Assembly (NCBI RefSeq): GCF_001447785.1
Contig: NW_015170923.1
Span: 69,583-133,582 of the forward strand
Reading direction: 5' to 3'
Length of the DNA stretch: 64,000 nucleotides
Source of the DNA: Gekko japonicus
Taxonomy: Eukaryota
The position numbers and the translations under genes are program-made. A model generated the notes under the pieces. The model was not told the DNA's origin and searched no databases. It saw nothing but the letters and a program-made list of their open reading frames with translations. Positions 18,001 through 21,000 of this stretch are shown here, piece after piece (position 1 is the stretch's first letter; each line of letters opens with the position of its first letter).

Positions 18001-21000
18001 CAGTATTTTGATATACATAACAGACCAGAAAGTAATCATATGCTTCAAGTTAGATCTCTTTCTGCTCTCTTGAATTCACCATCTAACTCACGTCATACTG
18101 TTGTGGGCCCAAAGCGGGGTAAACACCGTGTGACTTGGAATGCCAGTTTAGATAATAAAATTAAAACCCTTCTTAACTCCCAACAACTATTGGACTTAAA
18201 AAACTTAGTAAACTCTTTTGGCCAATATATATTTAATTATTTTATTTCCCTCTCCTAAAAAGGAGAGAAATTCTACTTTTATAATTTAGAAAAATAGGGA
18301 GGGTTCATAGAGGGACAAAGAAAAGTGTTGAGTGATGTTAAGTGTTAGTATATTAATCTGTTAGTATTAAGGTTAAAGTCCATGTCAAATTTTAAGACTT
18401 CTTCTGTGGTTGGATAATCATCTGTTTCTTCTTATTCCTTCCAAATCGGGCAGTTAATATGTTAGTAAAGTCCTTTTGGAATTAGTATTTCTTCTAAAGC
18501 ATTGTCCAAACTAGTCCTTAAGTTTTGCGATATTTTCCTTTTTTTTCCTCTTAAATTGTACTTTGGACCTCCAGCTGCTCCTTTAGCTTCTTCTTCTTTC
18601 ACCTCTCCTTCCGAGCTGCTGTCTTCTTCGCTTATCCCCGACATCCACTCGGCGAATTCTGCTTCGTCTTCAGTATTGGCGTGCCTTTTCAAAAAGTCTT
18701 GTGCCTTCAGGATAGAGTCAATCCTTTCTCTTTTATCTTTAAATTTACAGAGCAGTCCTTCTCGCGTCAACCACCTGTATCTAATTTGATGCTTTTGTAG
18801 AAACAAGGTCAATCCTTTGTATTCTTTTCTTTTCATTCTGATTTCAAATGGAACATCTTTCAAAACTCGGATTGGTTGTTCTCCAATTTTCAAGGGTGTT
18901 GCTGATACTGCTTTTAAGATTTGATCCCGGAGACATTGCTTAGTAAATTTAACTACCACTTCTGCCGGCAGCTTATTCTTCTTTGTATAGTTGGAGTAGG
19001 CTCTGTAGGCCAAATCCATCTCTTCTTTTATTTTTCCCGCTTCGCTGCCGATCAGTGGTGCCAACGCCGTTGCCAAGGTGTCTCTGAGGTCTTCATGGTC
19101 TTCTTCCTTCAGTCCTTGAAATCGAAGAGTCAAGTTCGACTTTTCCATTTGAAGCAGTAATAATTTATTGTCCTGCTTCATTTGATGTTTTTCCACTTTA
19201 ACAACTTTCTTCTTAACTTTCTGTATTTCTTCCGTTGACGCCAGACACTTCTTTGCAATATCATCTACCTTGTTGGCAGTCTCCGTCATTTTTTTCTGTT
19301 GAGTACTAAAAGCACTCTCCATGTTATCCAGCTTCTGATTGATTTTCTGCAGTTCCTCCAGCAGATGGTGTGCAAGTTCACTTTCTTGTTGATTGACAGC
19401 AGTCCCAGCAGGGGAGGGACTCGGACAGGAAGTTCCTCCTGCTTTCTTTGTCTGTCTCTCCAAAACCTTTTTCTGCATCGCCATTTTCAAACTTTGTTTA
19501 TACTTTAGAAGTTCGTGCTGCGTTGCCCAGGGATGGCTCCCTAGTCTCTGCTCTCAACTCTCTACCAAAAGGTAATGCGTTTATACAAATCTTCGCTTCG
19601 CCCCCCTCTCTGCTTTCAAAAGTCTCTTTTCTATGGTGGGGGGGGAATCCTCCCTCCTCCCTTTTGGTTTCCCGCGGGGGCGAATCGCGCTCAAGCTGCT
19701 ACTCTTAAGTTGATCTCCAACTCACAGTTAGTCGAATATGCTTTTCTTCAATCTTTAACTTTATCGCTTCATCACTCCGATGTTCCGGTGGCTGTGCTAG
19801 TCCCCTTGACGGGGCACATCGCAGCAGGGGCCGTTTGGGGCAAAGGGAGAACAGAACGGGGAGCCTCAATTCCCGGCCTTCGTGCCGGTAAGAGGCTTCT
19901 CCCAGTCTCCCGGTCGCGCCCCCTAGTTCGGAGCCTTTTCACCAAGGCTCCTTAGGATCTCTGCTTGCGCGGGACCCCCCCCCCCAGACTGCGTGTGGGC
20001 GATCCGGCTCCAGGAGCTTCCCGAGAGTCGGTCACCGGTCACGCGGCCATAGCCAGAAGAGCTGTTGGCCAAAATATTTTTGACATTTTCGCACAGGTTA
20101 TTTCTTTATTAAATCCTTATTATTTGACTACGGATGGCAAATCCAGCCTGGGCCAAAATAGAAAGTCCTGGTTTGATAAAGACTGTGGTGATATGAGATG
20201 TCTTTTACGTAGATTACAAAATAGTACTAGATGAGCAAGATCTGGAATTGCAATTGAGCTTTTGTCTCAATTTCAATCCTATTATAAGTATTTTTTGAAG
20301 GAGAAAAAACTTGCCCATAGTAAATGCCAATCGGAAGAATTGAGCCTTTCTATCTTACAAAAAATGAGAAGAGGTTTTGGGAACTAATAAGTTTAGGTAT
20401 TCAGGTACATAGCACCAATTCTGACACTTTTATTTCCTCTGACCAGTCGTTTTGTCATTTTTCTGTTCTTTACAATGACACTCAAGATGAACCAACTGCT
20501 GATTACCCTCTTACAGGTTTGGAGGCTCTTCCCAATATGGGACCCAATTTCAGTCAAAGAATGCAAGCAGTCGATTGAATCCCTCCCCTTAGGGAAAGCT
20601 CCTGGGGAAGACCTGGTGACTCCTGAAGTGTTCAAGCTAGACCCACAGTGGTGGAGTCCAATTTTAGCTAGACTCTTTTCGGAAATTAATAACACCTGTT
20701 TTATACCTCCCAATTTTACAAGGCATTATAATTCCCATTTACAAGTTCTGGCAAACTTTTTTTTGCCTATTAGTTTACTGGATTTCTCTCTAAAACTTTA
20801 CACCCGTTATCTCTTGGTCAAACTGGTAGATTGGGCAGATTCAGTTAATCCTTTTCACCCTAAACAGGCTGGCTTCCGTAAAGGCCACAGCACCATTGAT
20901 CACTGTCTGACCCTTAAGGCTTTGATTAAAAAATATCCCAACAACATCGGAAGCCATCTCTATGCTGCTTTCATAGATCTTTCTTCAGATTTCGATTCTA

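Follow-up and report, generated by a model that had tools for sequence, protein, structure and literature searches.

The minus-strand retroelement unit at positions 18235-20064 of the window (the whole 64-kb stretch of Gekko japonicus DNA analysed here) is a ~1.8-kb copy of an abundant multi-copy family of ORF1-only elements, and not a one-off. The insertion is very probably young, and its family very probably encodes only an L1-type ORF1 protein (ORF1p), kept under purifying selection, with which it is likely to package its own RNA, borrowing ORF2p from complete L1s.

The insertion and the protein that it encodes

The insertion and its surroundings have the following layout (TSD, target-site duplication).

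17635..18217, plus strand: left part of the host LINE, in frame with the right part once the insertion is taken out
18218..18234: TSD copy flanking the element's 3' terminus, 17 bp, with two changes relative to the empty-site sequence, adjoining the tail
18235..18240, minus strand: vestigial tail, between AATAAA and TSD
18241..18246, minus strand: AATAAA polyadenylation signal
18247..18517, minus strand: family 3' UTR, ~275 nt, with pyrimidine tracts; it shares homology with the family C 3' end (see below)
18250..18267, minus strand: 3' hairpin, directly before AATAAA, with a 7-bp conserved stem, a UUUU loop and one covarying pair, U-A or C-G
18462..19484, minus strand: ORF1 as read in the window copy, 340 aa, without stops; the family frame ends at 18518 (~321 aa)
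18539..18547, minus strand: A run with one extra base in the window copy, giving a 19-aa C-terminal read-through
19485..20064, minus strand: 5' UTR, ~580 nt, GC-richer, in which an internal Pol II promoter is presumed
20065..20081: TSD copy flanking the element's 5' terminus, equal to the empty site; target TC/AAAA on the element strand
20082..22260, plus strand: right part of the host LINE, a decayed reverse transcriptase (RVT_1, E 4e-14)

The outline drawn in the initial annotation, an ORF1-only minus-strand unit with a ~575-nt 5' UTR, an AATAAA signal and a target duplication of ~17-20 bp, whose deletion restores the host LINE frame, holds with small adjustments. The element starts at 20064, three bases before the 20061 first assigned (homology with the family starts at 20059), and its 5' UTR is correspondingly close to the predicted length. 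The family 5' start, GACTTCCGG...ATGGC, resembles the terminus of lizard clade-1 L1s. The host frame reads LVNSFGQ-(N/Y)IFDIF once the element is removed. The TSD is exactly 17 bp long, with 15 of 17 positions matching between its two copies. (What fixes the insertion and the length of its TSD is that the 17-mer is single in empty host-LINE paralogues: 10 of the 19 paralogous loci examined, in ~7 distinct places, have the empty site.) Over the insertion flank the host LINE is 85-91% identical to its own paralogues. Two expectations failed at the 3' end. The A-rich tail is represented in the window copy by only the 6 nt separating AATAAA from the TSD, and is therefore vestigial; the 3' UTR, put at ~230 nt from the 340-aa frame, is ~275 nt in the family, that frame being a copy-specific slip.

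Elsewhere in the window, a TMPRSS13-like protease exon lies at 24468-24611 (plus strand; E 2e-16), with a membrane-anchor-like ORF upstream of it at 13282-13400 (plus strand). The host LINE and its insert are probably located within an intron of a TMPRSS13-like gene, the insert being antisense. An ORF at 41847-42233 (plus strand) has what we take to be a resemblance to the C-terminus of a CR1-type LINE.

The ascription of L1 ORF1p architecture to the encoded protein is borne out by database match, profile match and fold. The window-copy protein matches human L1 ORF1p in the PDB at E 3e-5, and a profile of 103 relatives does so at E 5e-15. A structure model (pLDDT 84) gives a Foldseek E of 3e-10 to 2yko, and its best 11 fold matches are all L1 ORF1p. 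The model comprises a coiled coil (residues ~30-116), an RRM (~119-209) and a CTD (~213-268), and the C-terminus of the protein is an acidic/basic tail. In fold alignments the identity to human ORF1p is 17-22%, as against 28-41% to the genome's own L1s. The Pfam Transposase_22 model (PF02994), suggested as a check, does not match the window-copy protein, and matches 13 of the 103 aligned relatives; ORF1 copies of this kind escape that model, and annotation can mistake them for coiled-coil genes of the host. The named relatives are from Gekko, Micrurus and Phrynocephalus, and a search for homologues of near-equal length returned one protein. One relative carries the name apolipoprotein A-IV-like.

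The ORF is indeed stop-free over 340 residues in the window copy, as had been claimed, but that length is not the family's. Most copies of the family (family A) stop near codon 320-324, and the longer C-terminus of the window copy and of one other, L008, is due to one extra base in the A run near 18539, which is absent from 2 of 2 and 3 of 4 RNA reads. We therefore reject 340 aa as the family ORF length in favor of ~321 aa, the difference being a copy-specific +1.

A multi-copy family under selection at its sources

A DNA search of the same genome gave 3693 candidates; the 40 that were scored are 78-98% identical to the window copy, most of them span positions 22-1846 of the query, and the matches mostly end just after AATAAA. 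A protein search gave 150 scored matches, each at least 79% identical. Full-length, 5'-truncated and internally deleted copies are all present, and A tails are found on copies of the family. A TSD score of at least 9 was obtained at 28 of 29 loci, whereas none of 112 mismatched flank pairs scored above 8; a clear TSD, mostly of 16-21 bp, is seen at 51 of 70 loci, with a target that is mostly TY/ARAA (A at position +1 in 47 of 51). The genome search proposed at the outset thus yields a multi-copy family with fixed ends and a TSD at each locus. The outcome that had been named as fatal to such a family, homologues running on into ORF2, is seen in no copy examined: ORF2 matches near these copies lie in flanking DNA, and some belong to L1s into which the copies had inserted. 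The unit itself does not have the ORF2, with endonuclease and reverse transcriptase, of an autonomous L1. A one-off deletion or early polyadenylation product is ruled out by the number of copies, their TSDs and the lack of ORF2 continuation. Copies of these half-L1s often lie inside or beside complete L1s (for example L091, L082, L081 and L232), as is to be expected from an A/T-rich target preference.

These copies might instead have been produced again and again by a complete L1 whose transcript is polyadenylated early, just after ORF1, and not belong to a self-propagating family. Many internal AATAAA signals are recorded for lizard L1s in passages of PMC5381506. Against this stand the failure to find a complete L1 with these UTRs, the distance of the nearest sampled ORF2-linked ORF1 (~41% identical in the core), the retention of one and the same 3' end by nested subfamilies under selection, and the finding that none of 30 unselected loci with the 3' hairpin follows an ORF2 C-terminus. 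Recurrent early polyadenylation is accordingly very improbable, and we return to a self-propagating family.

Selection on ORF1 was analyzed on a tree of 48 family A copies over codons 1-312 (34 of the 81 loci with an ORF1 match, covering less than 85% of the ORF, were left out). On internal branches we count 509.5 synonymous changes against 316.5 non-synonymous ones, without a single stop, which corresponds to a dN/dS of 0.16 (0.13-0.20), or 0.25 (0.20-0.30) with transition weighting, and the ratio is lowest in the RRM and CTD. The dN/dS comparison that had been advised shows purifying selection on ORF1 in the source lineage. Terminal branches carry 542 synonymous changes, 487 non-synonymous changes and 16 stops. 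Their dN/dS is also below 1 (0.23-0.36), since part of the source history that they cover lies outside the sample; values near neutrality are confined to the six youngest copies (17 synonymous and 37 non-synonymous changes; dN/dS 0.56-0.87). Intact copies number 19 of 48; among the 6 youngest, 4 have an unbroken frame over codons 1-312. The branch of the window copy has a length of 0.012 (~1.2% from its source), with 3 synonymous and 8 non-synonymous changes. Of the two explanations first offered for its intact ORF, recent insertion or selection, the former stands: the window copy is intact because it is young. Selection on this copy itself is ruled out by the changes on its own branch and by the intactness of 4 of the 6 youngest copies; it is the source lineage that is selected.

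In three RNA runs (one study, same species label), 248, 12 and 179 reads, counted without strand calibration, fall on the region, nearly all of them within the element. The reads carry the letters of other family A copies, so that they speak for transcription of the family rather than of the window copy. The family C stretch collects 2618, 399 and 2041 reads in the same runs, likewise without strand calibration and in part from a flanking repeat. Read-through from host genes may contribute to these counts. No RNA-type run was found on record for this stretch.

A selected and transcribed ORF1 could also belong to a domesticated host gene, comparable with L1TD1, of which the copies would be processed pseudogenes; domestication of L1 ORF1 is reported (PMC4161310). 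What makes this reading highly unlikely is the structure of the family: several parallel source lineages (70-98% identity) and no single parent locus in sight, a 5' terminus of L1 type, the lack of introns, TSDs flanking full-length copies, and second and third families of the same design. A mobile ORF1-only family remains the preferred reading.

Probable depth of the lineage and a non-coding relative

Family B (L133-L162) is a second ORF1-only family, ~1.8 kb long, with an ORF1 ~40% identical to that of family A. A TSD is found in 19 of 20 copies, a count from which 10 of 30 loci, having no recognizable end, were left out. One score is shared by 24 of the 129 scored matches, which suggests very young copies. 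By eye, family B has a short terminal hairpin of its own, which differs from that of family A and lies after AATAAA.

Families A and B group together to the exclusion of 31 sampled ORF2-linked ORF1s, with SH-aLRT 98 in a quick tree of 86 rows (from which L193 was left out) and 99/99 support in a more careful tree of 32 rows; the tree alignment has only 173 columns. AU tests on 32 of the 86 rows, with alternatives picked after the first tree had been seen, reject placement of family A with L215 (p-AU 0.0014) and of family B with L195 (p-AU 3e-5). A profile of the family A 5' UTR matches 8 of 8 family B copies (E 1e-14 to 1e-10); of 30 autonomous stretches it matches only one, with a weak hit that does not lie in that L1's own 5' end. 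Homology between the A and B 3' UTRs is weak. Among the 31 ORF2-linked ORF1s sampled, the nearest is the one at ~41% core identity to family A, and no closer autonomous parent was found by way of PF02994 loci, a pattern for the start of ORF2, exact and loose 3'-end patterns, or UTR profiles.

Judged by these comparisons, the lineage looks like an old ORF1-only clade and has not come from any of the sampled L1s by recent deletion. The common clade, together with the 5' UTR homology, points to a probable single, ancient loss of ORF2 in the common ancestor of A and B, though a closer ORF2-bearing parent may have been missed in a sample of 31 ORF1s. This origin is likely independent of mammalian HAL1, sequences of which do not figure in the ORF1 tree. 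At L233:7403-8410, a weak 5' UTR match is followed by an ORF1-like stretch 27% identical over residues 19-158, possibly a further, clipped half-L1 lineage.

The hairpin that precedes AATAAA leads to another family. Its pattern has 2027 matches in the genome, against 5 for a control. The variable pair, among 100 of these matches, is U-A in 47, C-G in 48, and mismatched or wobble in 5. On a tree of the 3' UTR, the switch to C-G occurred twice independently, which amounts to two compensatory changes only, and the 3' end as a whole folds no better than shuffled sequence (z -0.86). A stricter pattern has 1394 matches, and its first 30 loci comprise 28 copies of family C, 2 of family A and none following ORF2, a ratio that overstates family C, since the stricter pattern misses the subfamily of the window copy.

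Family C (L176:230-1526, L237-L256) is 1.3 kb long and keeps the 5' UTR, ~20 codons and the 3' UTR, its UTRs being homologous to those of family A at E 1e-30 or better. It is young and abundant: the best copies are 98-99% identical, and 13 of 13 copies have a TSD. Neither an ORF1 profile match nor a conserved ORF was found among 20 copies, in which the ORF at the old start runs to 36 or 69 residues in differing frames. Family C thus has the features of an ORF-absent bipartite LINE, namely both termini of a LINE-type parent, TSDs, and no ORF that is conserved. It is probably an internally deleted, non-coding derivative that arose later from the ORF1-only lineage.

Putative helpers and a likely mode of spread

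Complete L1s are plentiful in this genome, with 1511 matches to the ORF2-start pattern as against 3 for a control. TSDs, of 15-19 bp, are found in 4 of 7 autonomous L1s examined, at the targets TT/AAGA, TC/AAAA and (twice) TT/AGAA; target sites and TSD lengths of family A match those of the genome's own L1s. Neither the family A UTRs nor the hairpin was found in autonomous L1s, as sought with UTR profiles in 30 stretches and with 3'-end patterns. One active-looking family of complete L1s (L229, L230, L234-L236) starts GGCTTCCGGTC and ends AATAAA...TTTACCAAAA, which resembles the ends of families A and C; no longer homology was found. This family is a candidate helper. The link to borrowed ORF2p rests on target preference, TSD length and 5' motif. 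Two further L1s have unusual structures: the complete L1 at L076:3373-6860 has a tandemly duplicated ORF1 with a spacing of ~2.3 kb (possibly an assembly artefact), and the L1 ORF1 at L087:1414-2817 encodes 467 aa with an internal duplication of ~90 aa.

Spread of family A can be envisaged as follows. Transcription by Pol II would start from the internal promoter of the 5' UTR, and ORF1p would bind its own RNA in cis, packaging it. L1 ORF2p, taken in trans, would execute target-primed reverse transcription at L1-type sites, and the 3' hairpin would have its part either in capture of ORF2p or in 3'-end processing. One possibility is docking of ORF2p by the hairpin, by analogy with human L1 ORF2p, which in vitro binds an Alu-like RNA stem-loop near poly(A) (PMC10830416, in part); another is a function in 3'-end processing. 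Covariation makes the hairpin a testable candidate docking element.

A human L1 reporter with ORF1 only is mobile when ORF2p is supplied in trans, and requires functional ORF1p for this (excerpt of PMC11260458). Family C, which would need both ORF1p and ORF2p in trans, spreads without an ORF1; cis-acting ORF1p is thus not strictly required for an RNA of this design. It is conceivable, then, that ORF1 of family A is kept for helping or interfering with other L1s in trans, its RNA moving like that of family C regardless, and a young and abundant family C with both UTRs and no ORF1 fits this idea. Selection on many separate sources is, however, most simply understood as a benefit in cis to the RNA that encodes the protein, and mobility of the mammalian reporter depends on functional ORF1p of its own (PMC11260458, same excerpt). 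We consider a purely trans role unlikely, and favor self-packaging.

The half-L1 lifestyle is already known from mammals; what surprises is less the window copy than how old its lineage looks and that an ORF-less family has come from it. Mammalian HAL1 was reportedly described by Smit in 1999 and by Bao and Jurka in 2010.

HAL1 is a non-autonomous L1 derivative that encodes ORF1p only and has arisen several times in mammals (PMC5753468, in part); its coding capacity was long kept in guinea pig (PMC3627910, in part) and it is also described in rat (PMC8535693, in part). Family A has the same attributes: a homologue of ORF1p, no ORF2, many copies with defined ends, A tail and TSDs, and a selected ORF1. 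Descent from L1, a retained 5' UTR and lasting coding capacity are further points in common (PMC5786205, in part), and use of ORF2p in trans is presumed for both. Unlike HAL1, this lineage has a squamate host, an ORF1 of squamate-L1 type and no close ORF2-bearing parent that could be found; it comprises two deep sub-lineages (~40% protein identity), and has a conserved 3' hairpin and an ORF-less daughter family. The 5' terminus of family A is close to the GACTTCCGGTGN8ATGGCG of Anolis clade-1 L1s, which it also resembles in its pyrimidine-rich 3' UTR, AATAAA and ORF1 length (passages of PMC5381506), but it has no ORF2, a 5' UTR of 0.58 kb rather than ~1.3 kb, and a total length of 1.8 kb rather than 6.4 kb. 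HeT-A (Jockey clade) and Ag-Sponge (CR1 clade) are likewise non-autonomous LINEs with an ORF1 (excerpt of PMC5786205), but of other LINE clades and ORF1 types, whereas family A is dispersed, at L1-type targets.

Among ORF-absent bipartite non-autonomous LINEs, the relevant part of PMC5786205 lists RTE, Ingi, Vingi and R2 only. Family C resembles these in keeping 5' and 3' ends and no coding sequence; it differs in belonging to the L1 clade and in its derivation from an ORF1-only element, a route absent from that part of the text. Given this listing, family C is less expected than family A. No report of a reptile HAL1 was found in a search of the literature (Repbase and Dfam lay outside it), and none is described in the available portions of PMC5203782, 10.1101/050880 and PMC3880073.

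Whether all of this adds up to an uncatalogued squamate lineage (a single old loss of ORF2, an independent ORF1-only L1 parasite with families at ~40% protein identity, a selected hairpin that captures ORF2p, and a non-coding 1.3-kb family now outnumbering its source) is in our estimation evenly balanced. If it does, one genome would hold the series from complete L1 to half-L1 to ORF-less retroposon, the L1 clade would have its own ORF-absent bipartite element, and there would be a natural three-way test of the need for ORF1p in cis. In any case, the family takes the half-L1 lifestyle beyond mammals, with direct evidence for selection on ORF1, and the matched natural constructs (ORF1-coding families A and B, ORF-less family C, complete L1s) could show what ORF1p adds in cis when ORF2p is borrowed.
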